Shown here: piece after piece, positions 8,423 through 15,204 of the stretch
Layout of the letters: each line of letters starts with the position of its first letter
How positions within the stretch are numbered: position 1 is the stretch's first letter
DNA from: Rhizobium sp. Q54
Lineage (GTDB): Bacteria > Pseudomonadota > Alphaproteobacteria > Rhizobiales > Rhizobiaceae
Assembly (NCBI GenBank): GCA_943372805.1
Contig: CALSAF010000002.1
Coordinates: 6,004-70,003 of the forward strand
Length of the DNA: 64,000 nucleotides
Reading direction: 5' to 3'
Translations under genes and position numbers: made by a program
The notes under the pieces: model-generated
Databases searched by the model: none
The model's input: the letters and a program-made list of their open reading frames with translations, nothing else
Told to the model about the DNA's origin: nothing

Positions 8423-10234
8423 ATGACCATAAGATTGAAACTGCTGGCCTGCATTTCGCTTTTGACAGGTGCCATTTTCGTCATCTCGGCTTTCGCCTTC
8501 TATGCAAAGGAAGAGCAATCAAAACTGACCACGTCGATCGTGGCCGACCGGGTCATTCCGATGGAACAGCTGAAGGTGATTGCCGACTCCTATGCAGTCG
8601 ACATCGTCGATGCCGTGCACAAGGTGCGATCGGGCGCGTTCAGCTTCGAACAGGGGCAAAAGAGCGTCGATGCGGCCATGGGCAAGATCGAGCAGAAGTG
8701 GGGCGAATACATCGTCACCTACCTGACTCCCGAGGAAAAGACGATTGCCGACGAGTTCCTGAAGGTCCGGGAGGGCGCCGATGCCGGCGTCAAGGAATTG
8801 CAGGCGCTGCTTCTCGCCAAGGACATGGAGGGGCTGGCCAGCTTTGCCGACAAGAAGCTCTATCCGACGATTGATCCGCTCGGCACCGAGATTTCCCGTC
8901 TGATCGAGTTGCAGATCCGGGTGGCCAAGGAAAACCTTGAGACGGCCAATATGCTGAAGGCCATGCTGACGACGCTGATGGTGGCCATGTCCGTCATGGC
9001 GGCTGGCGTTGCGGGTTTTTCGATCTGGACCGTGGTTGCCGGCGTCATTCGCCCGGTCAATTCGATCACCACGGCGATGGACAGGCTGGCGCATGGCGAT
9101 CTCGATGTCACCATCTATGGCGAGGGCCGCCGCGACGAGATCGGCGTGATGGCCTCGACCGTTGCCGTGTTCCGCGACAATGCCCGCGAGCGGGTTCGGC
9201 TGGAGAAAGAGGCGGAGGCCAACCGCACGCTGTCCGAGCAGGAGCGCATGGAACGCGAACGCCAGCAGGCGCAGGATGCCGCCGAAGTGCGCTTTGCGGT
9301 AGACAGGATCGGCCATGCGCTCGGCCAATTGTCGGATGGCAAGCTGACCTATCGGATCACGGAAGCCTTTGCCGAGCGGCTGGATGCGATCCGGGTGAAT
9401 TTCAACGATGCGGTGGCAAAGCTCGAAGATGCCATGCGCCGCGTCGGGCAGAATGCTCAGGTGATCGCCGCGGGCTCAAGCCAGATCCATGCCGCCGCAG
9501 ACGACCTGTCGAAGCGCACCGAGCGCCAGGCGGCGTCTGTCGAGGAGACCGCCGCAGCGCTCGAGCAGATCACCACCACGATCGGCGAAACCAGCCACCG
9601 CGCCCAGGAGGCAGGACGGCAGGTGCACGAGACACGCGGGGCGGCGGAACGCTCCGGGACGATCGTCGAGCGGGCGGTTTCGGCCATGCAGGAGATCGAG
9701 GGCTCGTCGAAGGAAATCACCACGATCATCAGCGTGATCGACGAAATCGCCTTCCAGACCAATCTTCTGGCGCTCAATGCCGGCGTCGAGGCCGCCCGCG
9801 CCGGGGAAGCCGGCAAGGGCTTTGCCGTCGTCGCCCAGGAGGTGCGCGAACTTGCCCAGCGTTCGGCCAGTGCTGCGAAGGAAATCCGCTCGCTGATCGG
9901 CAAGTCCGGCGACCAGGTGAAGAATGGTGTCGACCTCGTGGTGGCGACCGGCAAGGCGCTGGAGGAGATCGTCGCCCAGGTTCAGGCCGTCAGTGTCAAT
10001 GTGAACGCCATTGTCGAAGCCTCCGGCGACCAGGCGACGGGGCTCAAGGAAATCAACACGGCCGTCGCCGTCATGGACCAGGGCACGCAGCAGAATGCCG
10101 CCATGGTCGAGGAATCCACCGCGGCCAGCCGGTCACTCGCCAAGGAGGCGGAGGCGCTATTCCAGCTGATCGCGAAATTCGAGATATCAGGGCAGAGCAA
10201 CCAGAGCCAGCCGGGCACGCGCCGGGCGGCGTGA
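8423..10234 (+). CDS. Methyl-accepting chemotaxis protein (four-helix sensor, HAMP, MA domain)
   Basis: Two TM, HAMP ([10 protein letters not shown]), [40 protein letters not shown]. Confidence 0.97.
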
Positions 10235-10371: not shown

Positions 10372-10614
10372 ATGAACCGCCCTTTTCTCCTCGACGACGC
10401 GTTGCAGGCCCGGCTCACGGAGCTTGCGATCCGCGAGCAGCAGACGGAAGAGCAACTGCTGCAGGAGGCGGTGCGGGATTTTACCGACCAGGAAGACGGG
10501 CGGGCCGGAATCCTGGTCGAGGCGCGGTGGCAATCGCTTGCGGTTGCCAGGTGTCCCAATGCAGATGCTGATCAGACGTTTGTCGATGCCGTTTCGGATT
10601 GGCAGCATGCATGA
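10372..10614 (+). CDS. Small ribbon-helix-helix (CopG-like) protein, putative antitoxin/regulator
   Basis: FLLDDALQARLTELA...EQLLQEAVRDF resembles RHH antitoxins; stop overlaps next ORF. Confidence 0.55.
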   Translation: MNRPFLLDDALQARLTELAIREQQTEEQLLQEAVRDFTDQEDGRAGILVEARWQSLAVARCPNADADQTFVDAVSDWQHA

Positions 10615-11317
10615 CGAACAGGACGGTCGCCAGGGTTCCCGCCTCGTCGGCGGACCTACCCCCGACGCCAGCGCTGCGCTGTTCCTGTTGCAAGGCTTTG
10701 ATGACGTCACCAATACCGTCAGCGCAGAATGGTGCGTCCGCATCAAGGATATGGAGCAATTAAAAGCGGTTCTGGCGCCTGAAAGCGACTCGGATCCCGA
10801 TCTCCACAACCTCTATGCCGGATTGTCGCAATCCGAGATGCAGAAAATCGGCGCCTTGTGCATGCCGCCGATCGTTCCGGATGCCATTCTGACGGGCATC
10901 GCTCGACCGCACCCCGCCCTCAGCGGCACTCCCTATCTCATCCATACGCGTTTTGAACTTCCGCTGATGTTGGACGGACGAAAGCCATTGGCTGTGTTCA
11001 GGGATGTTTACCCATCCGACTGGTTCGACGACTTTCTCGCCCCATTCGAACCCTTTGTGGCCTCTGGCCAAATCCTGCGCCGTATCATCGACACACCGGC
11101 GCCCGCCCTCAAGCAACAGCACCCCGATCTTGATCGCATGCGGGACGTGCTCTTTGCCCTTCCGGATCAGGCGTGGCGGATCGACGCTTATGTCGAAGAG
11201 ATCTTGAACCGAACCCGCGACTGGGACGACGATCTCGAGCGCCGGCAAGGGTCGTTGCTCGGATATGAGGACTGGCAGAATGACTGGTGGATCGAGCAAC
11301 GGTCGAAAGGCAGGTAG
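10607..11317 (+). CDS. Hypothetical protein (236 aa)
   Basis: ATG overlaps upstream stop by 8 nt; globular composition with LPLMLDGRKPLAVF and LERRQGSLLGYEDWQNDWW segments; family not recognised. Confidence 0.7.
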   Translation: MHDEQDGRQGSRLVGGPTPDASAALFLLQGFDDVTNTVSAEWCVRIKDMEQLKAVLAPESDSDPDLHNLYAGLSQSEMQKIGALCMPPIVPDAILTGIARPHPALSGTPYLIHTRFELPLMLDGRKPLAVFRDVYPSDWFDDFLAPFEPFVASGQILRRIIDTPAPALKQQHPDLDRMRDVLFALPDQAWRIDAYVEEILNRTRDWDDDLERRQGSLLGYEDWQNDWWIEQRSKGR

Positions 11318-11447
11318 GCTTTGGCGCGGCTTTCTGCCGTCGCGCGACGATGCGTTCCGGCTGATCAGGCCAATGTCGCATAGTGCGGCGTCGCTGGAGG
11401 TGGCCAGATCAGGGAGATAGCGGCTGGAGACCCGATTGCAGCAAAGG

Positions 11448-11513
11448 CCGACGGTTTCTTTCGCCCAAGCGGTAAAAGAACTCAGCGTCCGGGTTTGGCC
11501 CGAATTCGCCTCT
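11448..11513 (+). repeat. Two ~30-bp 12-6-12 imperfect palindromes (sites A 11448-11477 and B 11484-11513)
   Basis: CCGACGGTTTCT-TTCGCC-CAAGCGGTAAAA and AGCGTCCGGGTT-TGGCCC-GAATTCGCCTCT; share spacer/arm features with sites at 12366, 14171, 14298; degenerate. Confidence 0.45.
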
Positions 11514-11631
11514 GCCCTTAAGGGATACAAACCCACGGCCGCAAAGCTTTCAATACCAGCCATCCCAAACGAGTCGTGGATACCCGCACCAAATGGTGCT
11601 AAATTGGCCACTCGTCTCCGGGAACATAGAC

Positions 11632-11832
11632 ATGCGGTCTACCATAAATCTTGATGATACTCTGTTGGAACGGGCGCGGTCGCTGACGGGCACGAAGGAA
11701 ACGGCAGCTCTTGTTCGACAGGCGCTGGAGACCCTTGTGCGTGTTGAATCGGGTAAACGGCTCATCGCACTCGGAGGCTCCATGCCAGAAGCCGAGGCCG
11801 CACCGCGCCGCCGGAGCAACGACGCAACGTGA
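11632..11832 (+). CDS. vapB: VapB-family antitoxin
   Basis: MRSTINLDDTLLERARSLTG..LVRQALETLV; GTGA overlap with PIN toxin. Confidence 0.9.
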   Translation: MRSTINLDDTLLERARSLTGTKETAALVRQALETLVRVESGKRLIALGGSMPEAEAAPRRRSNDAT

Positions 11833-12212
11833 TCCTGGTCGACACGTCAATCTGGATCGACCATTTTCGTTACGGTGATGCAGACCTTGAAAAAGTCATC
11901 ACGGATGACTGGCTGCTCTGCCACCCTTTCATTATCGGCGAACTGGCGCTTGGAAGTCTGCGACAAAGGGAAGCCGTCATCGCGTTCCTGACCGCTCAGC
12001 GTGAAGCGGCGATTGCGACGCATGCAGAGGTCATGATGACGATTGATCGACATTCGATATTCAGCATGGGGATCGGCTACACCGACGCCCATTTGTTGAC
12101 GTCAACATTGCTCGACCGGCGAGCCTGCTTGTGGACAAGAGATAAGCGTTTAGCGGCCGCAGCACAAAAAGTCGGTGCGGCGCTCTATCAGCCCGCGCAA
12201 GCGTCTCATTAG
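11829..12212 (+). CDS. vapC: VapC PIN-domain toxin
   Basis: MILVDTSIWIDHF, HPFIIGELALG, GIGYTDAHLL, LWTRDKRL. Confidence 0.93.
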   Translation: MILVDTSIWIDHFRYGDADLEKVITDDWLLCHPFIIGELALGSLRQREAVIAFLTAQREAAIATHAEVMMTIDRHSIFSMGIGYTDAHLLTSTLLDRRACLWTRDKRLAAAAQKVGAALYQPAQASH

Positions 12213-12365
12213 AATGGGAAGGCCCCGATGGAGGTGTTGATGGGATGCGCACCCGCAACCGTTGTCTGGAGGATGGGCGGCATGAGTGCTCGGTATGTTT
12301 AGCACAAGTGCCGCGCCGGATTGGGCCAGTCTCGGCCCTACCCGGACGTCCAGGTTTGAAATCCT

Positions 12366-12395
12366 GAAGGCAGCTTTTGGCCCAAACCGGTCATC
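12366..12395 (+). repeat. ~30-bp 12-6-12 imperfect palindrome (site C)
   Basis: GAAGGCAGCTTT-TGGCCC-AAACCGGTCATC. Confidence 0.55.
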
Positions 12396-12526
12396 GGTGG
12401 CTGGATGCCATAGCGCAGCTATGCGGAGTATAGCCGCGAAACGCGGACCTCGTCCGACATCAGCCTCAGAAGGAGTCTAGGGCCCCGCGTCACGGCCCGT
12501 GAGCGCCGTAGCTTGCGGGTGGGCCA

Positions 12527-13168
12527 CTAGCGGCTGAATGTGAGGTGAATGATTCCACTTTCTGCCGTTTCCGATTTCACATTATAGCCAGCTTCCAGGC
12601 CGCGCAGGTCGTCCCAGAGGCGTATGCCTCCTCCCAGCAGTATCGGAGCGATCGCAACATGCAGATGGTCAACAAGTCCAGCTTTGAGATAGTCGCGCAC
12701 CATGGTCGGTCCACCACCTATCCGTACATCCTTGCCGTTTGCGGCACCCACGGCCATCTGGAGCGCTTCAACCGGGGTCGCGGCGAGAAAGTGGAACGTG
12801 GTGCCACCAACCATTTCGATCGACGGCCGCGTGGTATGGGTGAGGACGAAGACCGGGCAGTGGAAGGGCGGCTCGTCACCCCACCACCCCTTCCAGTTCG
12901 GGTCATCGGGAAAGTTGTGCAGCCCGAACTTGCCAGCACCCATGATCTCGGCACCGATGTTGTCGAAATAGTCCTTCGCATAGGCGTCGTCCAAGCCGGT
13001 TGTTCCTGTGCCGCTGTCATCGTGCAGCACTCGCTCCTGGAAGGTCCTCGTTGCAACATAGGCACTCGTGAGGCGCGACCAGTCTTGGCCGAACGGATTG
13101 TCTGGTGTCTGGTCTGTGGTCGTTGCGAAACCATCGAGAGATATAAGAAGATCGACGCGAACTGCCAT
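12527..13168 (-). CDS. Dihydrofolate reductase / RibD C-terminal domain protein
   Basis: ISLDGF, IMGAGKF, WWGDEPPFHCPVFVLTH, KDVRIGGG, HVAIAPILLGGGIRL. Confidence 0.92.
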   Translation of the reverse strand: MAVRVDLLISLDGFATTTDQTPDNPFGQDWSRLTSAYVATRTFQERVLHDDSGTGTTGLDDAYAKDYFDNIGAEIMGAGKFGLHNFPDDPNWKGWWGDEPPFHCPVFVLTHTTRPSIEMVGGTTFHFLAATPVEALQMAVGAANGKDVRIGGGPTMVRDYLKAGLVDHLHVAIAPILLGGGIRLWDDLRGLEAGYNVKSETAESGIIHLTFSR

Positions 13169-13188
13169 TCGGGTGCTCCGAGGAAACT

Positions 13189-13236
13189 AAGGTAATTGCC
13201 TTTGTAATAGCACGTATACACTAAGGCAAGTACCTT
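13189..13236. promoter_or_regulatory. Two imperfect palindromes, putative ArsR operator pair
   Basis: AAGGTAATTGCCTT (13189-13202) and AAGGCAAGTACCTT (13223-13236), both preceded by ACT, between divergent DHFR-like and arsR genes. Confidence 0.55.
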
Positions 13237-13277
13237 TTTGTTCTTGACCGGCCCGGGCAGTCGCTTTACCTAGCGGT

Positions 13278-13628
13278 ATGCCTTTTCATTCGAACCCGCT
13301 CGACCTCGCATTCCATGCTCTCAGCGATCCGACACGCCGGGCGGTGATATCACGTCTCGCCGAGGGAGAGATGCCCGTTAGCGTGCTGGCTGAACCTTTT
13401 GACATGGCGCTCCCCTCGTTCGTCCAGCACCTCAAGGTGCTGGAGGATTGTGGGTTGATCGCCAGCGAGAAGCGCGGACGCAGCCGCTGGTGCCGCCTTG
13501 AACGAGCGCGCTTCGAGGAGGCGGCAAACTGGATGGAAGCGGAGCGCAGATGCTGGGCCGAGCGGCTCGACCGACTGGAAGCCTATCTGGACAACACAAA
13601 AGAGAGCGACGATGGAAAAGCTGTTTGA
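13278..13628 (+). CDS. ArsR/SmtB family transcriptional regulator
   Basis: AFHALSDPTRRAVISRL, HLKVLEDCGLI..EKRGR. Confidence 0.93.
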   Translation: MPFHSNPLDLAFHALSDPTRRAVISRLAEGEMPVSVLAEPFDMALPSFVQHLKVLEDCGLIASEKRGRSRWCRLERARFEEAANWMEAERRCWAERLDRLEAYLDNTKESDDGKAV

Positions 13629-14091
13629 TACCTGGTCGCTGGACCGTGAGATCGTGCTCGTAAAGGTGTTGAAGCACCCGCGCCATAAGGTCTTTGCCGC
13701 CTGGATGGACCCGGAAGCACTCGCGCAGTGGTACGGTCCGGCAGGCCTCACCATCGAGAACCGGAAGGCAGATATCCGCGAGGGCGGGGAATGGCGCTTC
13801 GACATGGTGGGTGTGTTTGAGGGGAAAATGCAGCGCTTTCCCAATCTTATGCGCTTTTTGAAGATCGTGCCGAACGAACTGATCGTGGTGGACTACGGCA
13901 CTCCCGAGCCGAACGATCCGGAGCGTTTCTACATGACGATATCGTTCGATGAGCAGACCGACGGGAAGACCGTGCTGACCATGCGCCAACTTCACCCGAG
14001 CCGTGAACGCCGCCAGACCGTCATCGGCTTCGGCGCGGTGGAGTACGGGCTGCAGACGCTGGACGGGCTGGCGGCCTGGCTCGAAGCCTGA
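13612..14091 (+). CDS. SRPBCC (AHSA1/START-like) domain protein
   Basis: REIVLVKVLKHPRHKVFAAWMDPEALAQWYGP, DIREGGEWRF; overlaps arsR stop. Confidence 0.9.
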   Translation: MEKLFDTWSLDREIVLVKVLKHPRHKVFAAWMDPEALAQWYGPAGLTIENRKADIREGGEWRFDMVGVFEGKMQRFPNLMRFLKIVPNELIVVDYGTPEPNDPERFYMTISFDEQTDGKTVLTMRQLHPSRERRQTVIGFGAVEYGLQTLDGLAAWLEA

Positions 14092-14170
14092 ACGCTCTAC
14101 AGCTAGGGGCGGGCGGGCTCGTTGCAGCGCTAAGAGACCGTCGGCTGTCTGCGGGGTCTGGCCGCCCCCT

Positions 14171-14327
14171 ACTTGCGGATGTGGGTCGGAAGCGGCCATT
14201 GAAGTTGCCCGCACTCTGAGGTTGCTATTCCATCCTGCGTCTAGGTCCAGACAGTTGCGAAGCGGCTCCTAACTGGACCGTGTCCAGGCTTGCCGTTAAT
14301 GTCCCCTATTGGCGCAAAGCGGAAGCC
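14171..14327 (+). repeat. Two ~30-bp 12-6-12 imperfect palindromes (sites E 14171-14200 and F 14298-14327)
   Basis: ACTTGCGGATGT-GGGTCG-GAAGCGGCCATT and AATGTCCCCTAT-TGGCGC-AAAGCGGAAGCC. Confidence 0.55.
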
Positions 14328-14370
14328 TCCATCCAGCCCCCTTCGCCATCCAGAACTACGGTCAAAACTG

Positions 14371-14393
14371 AAAAGGGGGCCGAGGCCCCCTTA
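14371..14393. terminator. Intrinsic terminator hairpin downstream of xylG
   Basis: AAAAGGGGGCCGAGGCCCCCTT; T-run on the minus strand. Confidence 0.75.
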
Positions 14394-14418
14394 AGTATGT
14401 GCGAAGCGTTGCAGCCGC

Positions 14419-15204
14419 TTACGCCGTCTGCATGGCGCCTGGCCCTGGCACTGCCCCCGGAGGGCACTTGCCGAGGATGATCATGCCCAGCACTTCGTCC
14501 TTGGTGACATCCTCTGTGCGGGCATGGCCCACCACGCGGCCGTTCTTCATGACGAAGACGCGGTCGGCGAGGTCGAAGACGTCGTGGATGTCGTGACTGA
14601 TCAGGAAGATGCCGATGCCGTCCTTCTTCAGCTGCATGATGAGGTCACCGACCTGGGCGGTTTCCTGCGGTCCAAGAGCGGCCGTCGGTTCGTCCATGAT
14701 CAGGATCTGGGCGTCGAAGAGGATCGCGCGGGCGATCGCCACCGACTGGCGCTGACCACCTGACAGAGCCTTGACCGGCTCCTTGAAGCGCTGGAAGTTG
14801 GGGTTGAGGCGTCCCATGACTTCGCGGGCCTTGGCTTCCATCGCGACGTCGTCGAGCGTGCCCCAGGCGGTGCGCAGCTCGCGGCCGAGATAGAGGTTGG
14901 CGGCGGCATCGACGTTATCGGCGACGGCGAGCGTCTGATAGATCGTCTCGATGCCATACTTCTTGGCGTCGCGCGGGTTGTTGATGTCGGCGAATTCGCC
15001 CTTGACCAGGATGTCACCATTGTCGCGCTTGTAGGCGCCCGAGAGGATCTTGATCAGGGTCGACTTGCCGGCACCGTTGTGGCCGAGCAGGGCCACGACT
15101 TCACCCGGGAAGAGATCGATCGTGGCATCATCGACAGCGTGAATGCCGCCGAACGAGATGGAAACGTTGCGCATTTCCACGAGGGGGGTGCGATTTTCGG
15201 TCAT
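14419..15204 (-). CDS. xylG: Sugar (xylose-type) ABC transporter ATP-binding protein
   Basis: Walker [26 protein letters not shown]; start MTENRTPLV. Confidence 0.85.

Follow-up and report, generated by a model that had tools for sequence, protein, structure and literature searches.

Several bacterial systems are known in which short sites or repeats border exchangeable DNA. In integron arrays and CALINs, rows of co-oriented recombination-type sites lie between small accessory genes, toxin-antitoxin pairs among them; their content varies between close relatives and, in CALINs, no integrase is required nearby. The 2016 integron surveys of Cury et al. are said to have found that Alphaproteobacteria lack integrons. 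Sites of the lox/FRT and Xer/dif type consist of inverted arms around an asymmetric spacer that sets their direction, and sites also bound the modules of pdif (Acinetobacter plasmids) and IMEX, pdif being served in trans. REP, BIME and REPIN sequences are short palindromes that lie extragenically, downstream of genes and in many cases as doublets or clusters, and are known hotspots of rearrangement and IS insertion. The CGTC-tagged REPs of Alphaproteobacteria have no known dedicated transposase (Di Nocera et al. 2013, PMC3733652). In the Neisseria NIMEs, short (20-bp) dRS3 repeats bound variable intergenic modules and are integration targets for mobile DNA; dRS3 has been classed with the CGTC-1 REPs (Di Nocera et al., PMC3733652). 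The rAID-1 arrays of Bacteroidales consist of orphan immunity genes, between which lie repetitive sequences 'reminiscent of integrons'; the genes are co-directional and a conserved XerD-like recombinase gene lies at the 5' end (Ross et al., bioRxiv 10.1101/471110).

The window analysed here is a stretch of 64,000 nucleotides from Rhizobium sp. Q54. Its slot between a chemotaxis receptor (MCP) gene and a xylG-like ABC ATPase gene, a hypervariable position in the host genus (which includes Peteryoungia aggregata), carries an array in the order A/B segment, vapBC, RibD_C-ArsR-SRPBCC, site F. An initial annotation had proposed that co-oriented 12-6-12 palindromes separate the gene blocks. Sites were scored against a 28-mer consensus, ATGTCCGCTTT-TGGCGC-AAAGCGGACAT, which was derived solely from other alphaproteobacterial genomes before being applied to the host genome, and in which two inverted arms of 11 bp enclose an asymmetric, conserved spacer of 6 bp (TGACCC forms a second spacer class). 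The features are the following, with mismatches counted against this consensus:

10372..10614, + strand: orf80, small RHH-type antitoxin-like gene, N-terminus MNRPF(T/L)LDD
10607..11317, + strand: orf236, protein without assigned family, overlapping the orf80 stop
11420..11513, + strand: A/B segment, bounding the variable array on its left in five species
11485..11512, + strand: site B, decayed, 12 mismatches, recognised through better orthologues
11632..12212, + strand: vapB-vapC toxin-antitoxin module (Pfam VapB_antitoxin, E = 5e-11; PIN, E = 7e-4)
12322..12349, + strand: site C1, newly seen, decayed first member of a doublet, 12 mismatches
12367..12394, + strand: site C (C2), AAGGCAGCTTT-TGGCCC-AAACCGGTCAT, 6 mismatches
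12527..14091: cargo block with a RibD_C reductase-like gene (- strand), an ArsR regulator and an AHSA1/SRPBCC gene (both + strand), assigned by Pfam
14172..14199, + strand: site E, possible half-site, right arm GAAGCGGCCAT matching at 9/11 positions
14299..14326, + strand: site F, ATGTCCCCTAT-TGGCGC-AAAGCGGAAGC, right array boundary, 5 mismatches, the best match of the genome
14371..14395: GC-rich hairpin GGGGGCCGAGGCCCCC, 'type II' terminator, between F and the stop codon of the xylG-like gene

At ≤6 mismatches the 4.86-Mb genome has just two matches to the consensus, sites C (12367) and F (14299), both on one strand and separated by 1.9 kb. By comparison, 150 composition-matched control palindromes gave a mean of 0.067 matches per genome, and none of the 150 had two within 2.5 kb. 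That an independent consensus picks exactly C and F, and that four other species have orthologous and extra copies at the same locus, makes a chance likeness among GC-rich intergenic sequences highly improbable. Chance would account for the pairwise identity of only 15-18/30 bases among B, C and F, for the weak arm complementarity and for a PWM from the local sites that retrieves no genome-wide family. It is effectively refuted for C and F; it stands for site A (17 mismatches) and the copy at 11310 (18 mismatches), which are unsupported as motif copies.

The five 30-mers quoted in the initial annotation are present where it placed them and share one orientation. The palindrome label is a weak one in this window: arm complementarity is 1/12 in A, 5/12 in B, 8/12 in C, 6/12 in E and in F and 1/12 in the 11310 copy, against about 3/12 by chance. 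The consensus that it implied has no match in the window at ≤3 mismatches and practically no genomic match when ≤4 mismatches and spacers of 0-11 are allowed, and the intergenic regions of the window belong to no BLAST repeat family of the genome. From its list of six to eight sites, two to four are retained as real (C and F, B through its orthologues, and of E the right arm only, its left arm and spacer being unrecognisable against the consensus). The 'lone left-arm pieces' GTCCAGGYTT correspond to the right-arm end and linker of the upstream member of the doublet. Putative sites B and C1 draw their support entirely from better-preserved orthologues. Those of B are found in the relatives G012, G386 and G006 (in G012, TCGTCCGCGTTTGGCCCGAAGCGGCCTT, 7 mismatches). 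C1, whose orthologue in G339 (Peteryoungia aggregata) reads TGGGGCAGTCT-TGGCGC-GAAGCGGTCAT, lies 45 bp upstream of C, which is the canonical doublet spacing. In the three intergenic regions, right-arm cores NAAGCGG occur four times on the + strand (0.39 expected, P = 7e-4) and not at all on the minus strand. Of the sites first reported, two or three are worn copies of an alphaproteobacterial 28-base palindrome.

This palindrome is real and widespread. Its exact pattern of 21 specified bases occurs in more than 120 contigs from at least five orders (Rhizobiales, Caulobacterales, Sphingomonadales, Rhodospirillales and Micropepsales), in agreement with the initial annotation, which had mentioned similar repeats beside accessory genes in other Alphaproteobacteria. 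The flanks of the copies are unrelated, so that the unit is about 28 bp. At least two copies were found in 71/120 8-kb motif loci, against 0/120 for a reversed control. Neighbouring copies are separated by a median of 1.47 kb and are co-oriented (98:7), as are doublets (23:3). The copies are extragenic and lie at gene 3' ends: for flanks with a callable coding strand, the upstream gene points toward the site in a ratio of 26:8 and the downstream gene in a ratio of 30:8. The cargo is of accessory type and comprises toxin-antitoxin genes, Imm8 and SUKH immunity genes and orphan enzymes. Between loci of different genomes, homology ends ≤10 bp from a site in 24/210 cases, compared with 5/210 for random positions; in one locus pair with 96% identity, divergence starts right after the last base of the site. 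Since the sites are near-identical to one another, the exact crossover point is not resolvable.

Part of this behaviour is that of REP-like dispersed palindromic repeats, the main rival explanation, which we regard as possible although rather doubtful. Short selfish or structural repeats would have piled up downstream of genes, especially acquired ones, and identical cruciform-prone repeats of 28 bp (or 74 bp for a doublet) would act as passive hotspots of RecA-dependent, illegitimate or end-joining recombination, with no dedicated cassette machinery. The extragenic position at gene 3' ends agrees with this, as do cargo that occurs elsewhere without sites, the failure to find a dedicated recombinase, and the fact that the CGTC-tagged REPs typical of Alphaproteobacteria also do without a dedicated transposase (PMC3733652). 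However, RAYT (Y1_Tnp) was found in 0/17 motif-bearing genomes and was detected in the control genomes, and copies number tens, not hundreds, per genome. REP stems measure 8-9 bp and their loops 4-5 nt, whereas the motif has 11-bp arms and a conserved 6-nt centre. Its doublets are tandem and its arrays co-oriented, whereas REPINs and CGTC REPs are mostly head-to-head, and passive hotspots leave this co-orientation unexplained. Finally, typical REP families are lineage-specific, whereas the motif, 'loop' included, is near-invariant across orders and exhibits no structure-preserving covariation.

Compensatory arm changes show no excess (26 observed vs 23 expected), and conservation is 88-93% at spacer positions 12, 13, 15 and 17, the spacer having two alleles. 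Such conservation without covariation fits recognition of duplex DNA by a protein together with a need for matching overlap regions. It also fits a dimeric DNA-binding protein. The sites, found at gene 3' ends, might then be operators bound by a conserved alphaproteobacterial protein that silences or insulates acquired genes, or bidirectional transcript-end hairpins, with a secondary association to breakpoints. We consider this quite improbable: the co-orientation is independent of gene orientation in G339, breakpoints are enriched at the sites, a U-tract is absent, no Rfam family matches, and the setting of the arrays is accessory DNA, not regulons.

At the MCP-xylG locus itself, the boundary segments are shared among relatives and the cargo between them differs, with breakpoints at the sites. 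The placement of sites at module junctions by the initial annotation was correct, these boundaries separating exchangeable gene modules. The A/B segment is present in one copy per genome; G012, G386 and G339 share it at 82-83% identity, and in G006 the similarity is weaker. The cargo to the right of the segment varies among the species that bear it. Site F is kept in all four, with different cargo on its left. In G012 the A/B segment is followed by a gene without assigned function, a metallophosphoesterase gene and F, with motif copies at the junctions; in G386 by vapBC, one C-type site, a 246-aa membrane ORF and F. In G339, A/B and vapBC precede about seven modules of one gene each, which lie in both orientations and include Imm8 and SUKH-1 immunity genes; six motif copies at ≤9 mismatches (about nine visible by eye) all lie on one strand. 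The array is absent from G022 and G003, whose empty locus has no motif copy. The 45-bp tandem doublet at C is found in the window and in G339, while G386 has at this point one hybrid site composed of the C1 left arm and a C2-type right arm. Recombination between one spacer of the doublet and the other would be expected to yield just such a hybrid.

The modules themselves, where found elsewhere, do not bring the sites with them. This holds for vapBC in G022 and G006, for the RibD_C-ArsR-SRPBCC block, which is entire (74% identical) in G031, a member of another family, and for orf236, whose homologue in G002 is 84% identical and has a different neighbour gene. These are therefore not integron-like cassettes each bearing its own site. 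At the MCP-xylG locus, vapBC follows the A/B segment also in G386 (92%) and G339 (89%), and orf236 is missing in G012, G386 and G339. Neither orf80 nor orf236 matches a Pfam family; the orf80 homologue in G022 and G003, with the same N-terminus, is followed by a ParE/RelE-like toxin ORF.

The variation could also stem from a single small integrative islet at the xylG 3' end, the contents of which were later swapped between species by homologous recombination via A/B and F, the internal motif copies being incidental passengers. A/B and F, single copy and 82-92% conserved, would suffice for such flank-mediated replacement. Upstream of its A/B segment, G006 retains a diverged piece (46 bp) of the xylG 3' end, a signature of insertion replacing the 3' end of a gene. 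Moreover, the 'type II' terminator is found in the window, G012, G006 and G386, all array-bearing, and travels with the array beside F, whereas array-less relatives and, among array-bearing genomes, G339 carry a different hairpin, AACGAGGGAGCTTAACGCCCCCTCG. We nevertheless hold an islet to be unlikely. It leaves unexplained the same motif at internal junctions of G012, G386 and G339, the status of C and F as the two best genomic matches to a consensus from other orders, and the spacer-to-spacer deletion at the C doublet; neither a xylG remnant nor an integrase is present in the window.

No partner enzyme emerged, in the host or in motif-rich genomes, and two integrase families are inconsistently linked to the sites. 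A 200-aa tyrosine recombinase occurs in 4/120 motif loci and is flanked by sites in three of the four. It is absent from the host genome and from G339, has no adjoining sites at 12 loci in the host genus, shows a site at just 8/80 of its loci elsewhere, and is missing from 7/15 motif-rich genomes, one of them a complete chromosome. A 355-aa integrase family adjoins sites at two loci, yet only 3/80 of its own loci have sites. In a complete 3.4-Mb chromosome, 5/12 integrase genes lie ≤400 bp from a site, which speaks for recombination sites. IS91-type transposase is rare with the motif. As the initial annotation had stated, no recombinase lies nearby: the 10 Phage_integrase genes of the host genome are all off the contig of the window.

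The reading that we tentatively favour, and which may be correct, is that the sites are lox/dif-type recombination sites in a decayed array and were served in trans. The 11-6-11 geometry and length of the motif are those of dif, and its two spacer alleles would act as heterospecific sites in the manner of lox/FRT. However, its arms are unrelated to the dif-like site of the host, which is ordinary; we know of no cognate enzyme for the motif. Around pdif modules the sites alternate in orientation, unlike the co-oriented motif copies. Unlike integrons, the motif arrays have neither IntI nor an attI-Pc platform and hold genes in both orientations, and attC sites (57-141 nt) conserve their fold with a variable sequence, whereas the motif is a sequence-conserved 28-bp duplex-type palindrome. 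The array of P. aggregata recalls rAID-1 in its immunity genes and differs from it by its mixed gene orientations and the lack of a recombinase. NIMEs differ in sequence and taxon, and are built of non-coding units of 50-150 bp instead of genes.

For the cassette system first proposed, the boundaries, the co-orientation and the breakpoints in relatives (in one case at the two spacers of a doublet) are borne out, a cognate recombinase is not. From the anatomy and the comparative breakpoints we infer site-specific recombination by an enzyme of the tyrosine-recombinase type. The 28-bp site would be a duplex, sequence-specific site of lox/FRT/dif type, and a recombinase encoded elsewhere would bind both arms, with strand exchange taking place across the spacer. 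Two co-oriented sites would result when a circular module inserts at an existing one, and recombination between co-oriented sites would cause loss of the intervening DNA. The host genome has no intact motif copy, and its sites appear too degraded for present activity; as the initial annotation had suggested of the local copies, the window most likely preserves scars of past events. In Alphaproteobacteria, these rows of palindromes between swappable accessory genes look like an undescribed gene-cassette system.

The motif copies of the window lie in a slot bounded by a chemotaxis receptor gene and a convergent xylG-like gene:

8423-10234: gene for a methyl-accepting chemotaxis protein (MCP), left neighbour of the slot
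10372-10614: orf80, no Pfam match
10607-11317: orf236, no Pfam match
11632-11832: VapB gene (Pfam)
11829-12212: VapC gene, PIN domain (Pfam)
12527-13168, minus strand: RibD_C reductase-like gene (Pfam)
13278-13628: ArsR regulator gene (Pfam)
13612-14091: AHSA1/SRPBCC protein gene (Pfam)
stop near 14419: xylG-like ABC ATPase gene, convergent with the MCP gene, right neighbour of the slot

The Pfam matches bear out the gene map of the initial annotation. In two relatives of the same genus (G022 and G003) the homologue of orf80 is the RHH antitoxin in a ParDE-like pair. orf236 is unrelated to the ParDE-like toxin partner and stands in its place, its ATG at 10607 overlapping the orf80 stop; the two genes may reflect exchange of the toxin or an antitoxin left orphaned. 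The locus genes occupy both strands, and the RibD_C-ArsR-SRPBCC module comprises three genes with their own divergent promoter region. This block (12527-14091) recurs with 74% DNA identity in a genome from another family of the same taxonomic order (G031, loci L002/L019). The homology stops exactly at the coding limits, suggesting horizontal transfer as a unit.

The initial annotation had described five palindromes in the slot (A, B, C, E and F, from left to right) and a weaker copy at 11310. All five quoted 30-mers are present at the coordinates given for them. The complementarity of their arms is weak: it amounts to 1/12 in A, 5/12 in B, 8/12 in C, 6/12 in E, 6/12 in F and 1/12 in the 11310 copy. 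The consensus implied by these strings has no match in the window with up to 3 mismatches and essentially none in the 4.86-Mb genome with up to 4. A weight matrix built from the local sites recovered no family beyond its training sites (25 matches at ≥16 bits, against 10 for the control). In BLAST searches within the genome the three intergenic regions gave chance matches only, and an Rfam scan of 9-17 kb gave no credible family. Judged on its own genome alone, the observation would look like over-reading.

Better copies than those of the window occur in relatives of the same genus. The exact pattern ATGTCCGC-N3-TGGCGC-N-AAGCGGA was found in more than 120 contigs of Rhizobiales, Caulobacterales, Sphingomonadales, Rhodospirillales and Micropepsales, including contig 11 of Peteryoungia aggregata LMG 23059. 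The copies stand in rows between accessory genes; the initial annotation had suspected similar repeats beside such genes in other alphaproteobacteria. The shared unit is a 28-mer, ATGTCCGCTTT-TGGCGC-AAAGCGGACAT, whose flanks are unrelated among copies. An 11-6-11 consensus was built on 126 exact and 162 further copies, from genome collections holding one genome per species. At least two copies are present in 71 of 120 8-kb loci around exact copies (reversed control, 0/120), with a maximum of nine in one locus and a median spacing of 1.47 kb between neighbours. Neighbouring copies are co-oriented (98:7), as are doublets about 45 bp apart (23:3), in which a TGGCGC site is followed after about 17 nt by a TGACCC site. 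Copy number ranges from about 2 in the window's genome to 35 in the richest complete genome checked. Cluster orientation flips along a complete chromosome, so that polarity is independent of replichores; such flips between clusters of complete chromosomes rule out a KOPS/Chi-like polarity. A search of 80 genomes of the genus with the 13-mer TGGCGCRAAGCGG gave just about twice the control count, the string being too short to inform.

The modules of the motif loci carry single accessory genes: an aldose epimerase, an HWE kinase, a PLD enzyme, a cyclase-hydrolase or an orphan solute-binding protein. When loci of different genomes are compared, 24 of 210 ends of homology have a site no more than 10 bp away; for random positions the count is 5 of 210. 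In one locus pair that is 96% identical, divergence begins directly past the last base of the site. The crossover point itself is beyond resolution because the sites are nearly identical. Integron attC sites are imperfect palindromes of 57-141 nt which are read as folded single strands and conserve structure while their sequence varies. The motif differs in its 28-bp unit and in its sequence conservation, which includes a centre with two alleles. Moreover, its arms show no excess of covariation (26 compensatory substitutions where 23 are expected, with 31 non-compensatory doubles). The conserved centre and the lack of compensatory excess argue for a protein reading duplex sequence rather than a fold of the attC or REP type.

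With this consensus, derived from other alphaproteobacterial genomes, the whole genome of the window contains only two sites with up to six mismatches. These are C (12367) and F (14299), on the same strand and 1.9 kb apart. Among 150 composition-matched control palindromes the mean was 0.067 matches, and none gave two within 2.5 kb. B has 12 mismatches and is accepted solely because of its orthologues, that of G012 having 7. A further decayed copy, C1 (12322), precedes C by 45 bp, the canonical doublet period, and E preserves the right arm alone (9/11). A and the 11310 copy, proposed as sites, score at chance level, and the GTCCAGGYTT pieces taken for left arms are actually the right-arm end and linker belonging to a doublet's upstream member. 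Over the three intergenic regions, NAAGCGG right-arm cores number 4 on the plus strand against 0.39 expected and 0 on the minus strand (P = 7e-4). A reading of F as a small ORF (MSPIGAKRKPP...) was rejected as spurious since the substitutions among three species do not follow a codon pattern. The 28-mer opens with an ATG and translates as MSAFGAKRT, or as GGKADI in another frame, and thereby seeds spurious short ORF calls, here that of 14280-14480. Such ORFs are presumably behind many of the "hypothetical proteins" of alphaproteobacterial annotations.

The slot is hypervariable in the genus, where it was compared within a set of 80 species genomes. It contains the ParDE-like pair alone before xylG in G022 and G003, and orf236 with another gene in G002. 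In G012 the MCP gene is followed by the A/B segment (11420-11513 in the window), an unknown gene, a metallophosphoesterase gene and F, with motif copies in the middle and at both ends. G386 carries A/B, vapBC (92% identical), a single C-type site, a 246-aa membrane ORF and F. In G339 (Peteryoungia aggregata), A/B and vapBC precede some seven modules of one gene each, which lie on both strands, with a co-oriented motif copy at each junction (six copies with ≤9 mismatches, all on the same strand). Two of these modules are orphan SUKH-1 and Imm8 immunity genes (L033, 2055-2420 and 3520-3855) with no toxin gene in view, and the array looks like a small polyimmunity islet. The boundaries A/B and F are single copy and 82-92% conserved, and the DNA between them differs. 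A/B was also considered as a dispersed repeat; this was rejected, the segment being single copy and restricted, within the genus, to a few species.

The C junction is a tandem doublet in the window and in G339 and a single hybrid site in G386, in which the left arm and spacer of C1 are joined to a right arm of the type of C. This matches the product that recombination between the two doublet spacers would be expected to leave. The initial annotation had proposed that breakpoints in relatives should fall in the spacer, and the G386 hybrid favours it.

Upstream of A/B, G006 carries a diverged duplicate, 46 bp long, of the xylG 3' end (L018, G006:C55, about 2050-2110), immediately followed by a motif-like ATGTTTCCTTTGGCCAAAGGCC; both contigs of G006 end within the array. 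This remnant suggests that the whole array first entered via integration into the xylG 3' end, and supports the insertion origin assumed by an alternative in which the array is an islet inserted there and exchanged afterwards by way of its conserved flanks. Such an islet leaves the internal sites unexplained, and we consider this explanation improbable. Two alternative hairpin terminators occur downstream of xylG in the genus (14371-14395 in the window, and in relatives): AAAAGGGGGCCGAGGCCCCCTTAAG in array-bearing genomes, and AACGAGGGAGCTTAACGCCCCCTCG in array-less genomes and G339.

In array-less relatives the empty locus is devoid of the motif. Copies of vapBC, orf236 and RibD_C-ArsR-SRPBCC elsewhere in other genomes are without sites. 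Both findings count against a strict cassette model. The site-less cargo also speaks for the main rival explanation, a REP-like repeat family merely attracting general recombination, as do the location of the sites at 3' ends and the failure to find a dedicated enzyme. REP/REPIN-RAYT systems comprise a RAYT gene (Y1_Tnp, an HUH protein), head-to-head doublets and hundreds of copies. The motif departs from this in its tandem doublets (23:3), its copy numbers (about 2 to 35) and the absence of RAYT (Y1_Tnp, PF01797) from all 17 motif-bearing genomes searched, control genomes being detected. CGTC REPs are described as a CGTC/TGTC tag, a stem of 8-9 bp, a loop of 4-5 nt and a CCA tail, mainly in head-to-head dimers (PMC3733652). 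The outer end of the motif does contain TGTC/CGTC; its 11-bp arms, 6-nt centre and tandem doublets differ from what that textual description gives (PMC3733652). Br-REP1 and Br-REP2 of Bradyrhizobium have sequences different from the motif (PMC5082802). Overall, a REP-like family appears a rather unlikely explanation.

The initial annotation had placed no recombinase near the sites. Indeed, the genome has 10 Phage_integrase matches (tyrosine recombinase genes) with none on the contig of the window, and the Pfam scan of the locus gave none. In the window, G012, G386 and G339 the arrays have no recombinase at their flanks, and the co-occurring tyrosine recombinase or HUH nuclease envisaged as a partner shows no consistent link to the motif. 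One candidate, a tyrosine recombinase of 200 aa that comprises just the catalytic domain, occurs in 4 of 120 motif loci and is site-flanked in three. Its family extends over Alpha-, Beta- and Gammaproteobacteria, with a site in just 8 of 80 of its loci and beside none of 12 examined in the genus. It is absent from the window's genome and from G339, and encoded in 6-8 of 15 motif-rich genomes, the 7 without it including a complete chromosome. Its flanks are ordinary variable terminator hairpins with no common site. It is therefore enriched near sites, yet not consistently linked to them, and was rejected as the partner. Its loci include L125:2326-2970, L134:6797-7417, L090:2895-3563 and L166-L245. 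These proteins are 55-86% identical across classes (including Pseudomonas, Methylomonas and Massilia), more conserved than is usual for the product of a mobile gene, and their genes are often pseudogenes in the genus.

Other candidates were also rejected: a 355-aa integrase family (sites in 3 of 80 loci), an IS91-type Y2 transposase (2 of 15 genomes only) and serine recombinases (2 of 120 motif loci). Clustering of 2,266 ORFs from the 120 motif loci revealed no recurrent neighbour family beyond generic paralogues. Of the 12 integrase genes of one complete chromosome, 5 have a site within 400 bp, toward which their 3' ends point. They belong to different families; the one examined is the 355-aa family, with its sites in 3 of 80 loci. 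These scattered links indicate that the arrays are variable regions rich in integrases, with no one dedicated enzyme in cis. A tandem pair of overlapping tyrosine recombinase genes, which may belong to a recombinase trio, is located 250 bp upstream of a motif doublet on a 3.4-Mb metagenome chromosome (L248, G396:C1:139700-142200).

In integrons an IntI-type tyrosine recombinase gene adjoins an array in which co-oriented sites separate mostly promoterless, co-directional single-gene cassettes. No IntI-type gene adjoins the present arrays. Their sites are co-oriented (98:7 overall, and all G339 copies), and their genes lie on both strands. The Alphaproteobacteria are a class reported without integrons. 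The 11-6-11 bp architecture is that of Xer/dif-dependent modules (pdif, IMEX), but the motif arms do not resemble the host dif-like site. The sole CATAA-N6-TTATG site of the genome (C158:3472, TTCCATAATCTATCTTATGCGATTT), whose arms are unrelated to the motif, is probably a site of chromosome dimer resolution (dif). Compared with simple sites of the lox/FRT type, the motif has no co-occurring cognate recombinase among the candidates tested. The nearest analogue of the G339 immunity-gene array is rAID-1 of Bacteroidales, but there a XerD-like recombinase is linked to the array, at the 5' end of co-directional immunity genes (bioRxiv 10.1101/471110). Moreover, immunity genes occur in G339 alone among the window, G012, G386 and G339. 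A literature search by sequence string and topic, mostly outside subscription journals, turned up no account of the motif, and an earlier description may exist.

Taken together, the 11-6-11 geometry, the conserved asymmetric spacer of two classes, the strict local co-orientation whatever the gene direction, the module turnover with breakpoints at sites and the spacer-to-spacer deletion find their best explanation, tentatively and with slightly more doubt than confidence, in a site-specific recombination system of the lox/dif type acting in trans, of which the window would hold decayed scars. The broader proposal is more doubtful: that Alphaproteobacteria own a widespread gene-cassette system, with a 28-bp lox/dif-like site and a conserved chromosomal recombinase unlinked to the arrays, of which the window would be a fossil array. 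The spacers of such a system would fall into two heterospecific classes (TGGCGC and TGACCC), and its sites would often be paired in tandem.

Even if only REP-like, the motif would still be an unusually conserved class-wide repeat marking synteny breakpoints, useful for pangenome analysis. Should the 28-mer prove to be a genuine site of recombination, it would provide a simple sequence tag for locating hypervariable slots in alphaproteobacterial genomes and account for a large class of spurious ORF calls of the MSAFGAKRT/GGKADI type. Being short, natural and available with two orthogonal spacers, it could also be of use in genome engineering. In that case it would further explain how single accessory genes, among them toxin-antitoxin pairs, immunity genes and orphan enzymes, are shuffled in many Alphaproteobacteria, such as rhizobia, bradyrhizobia, sphingomonads and caulobacters.
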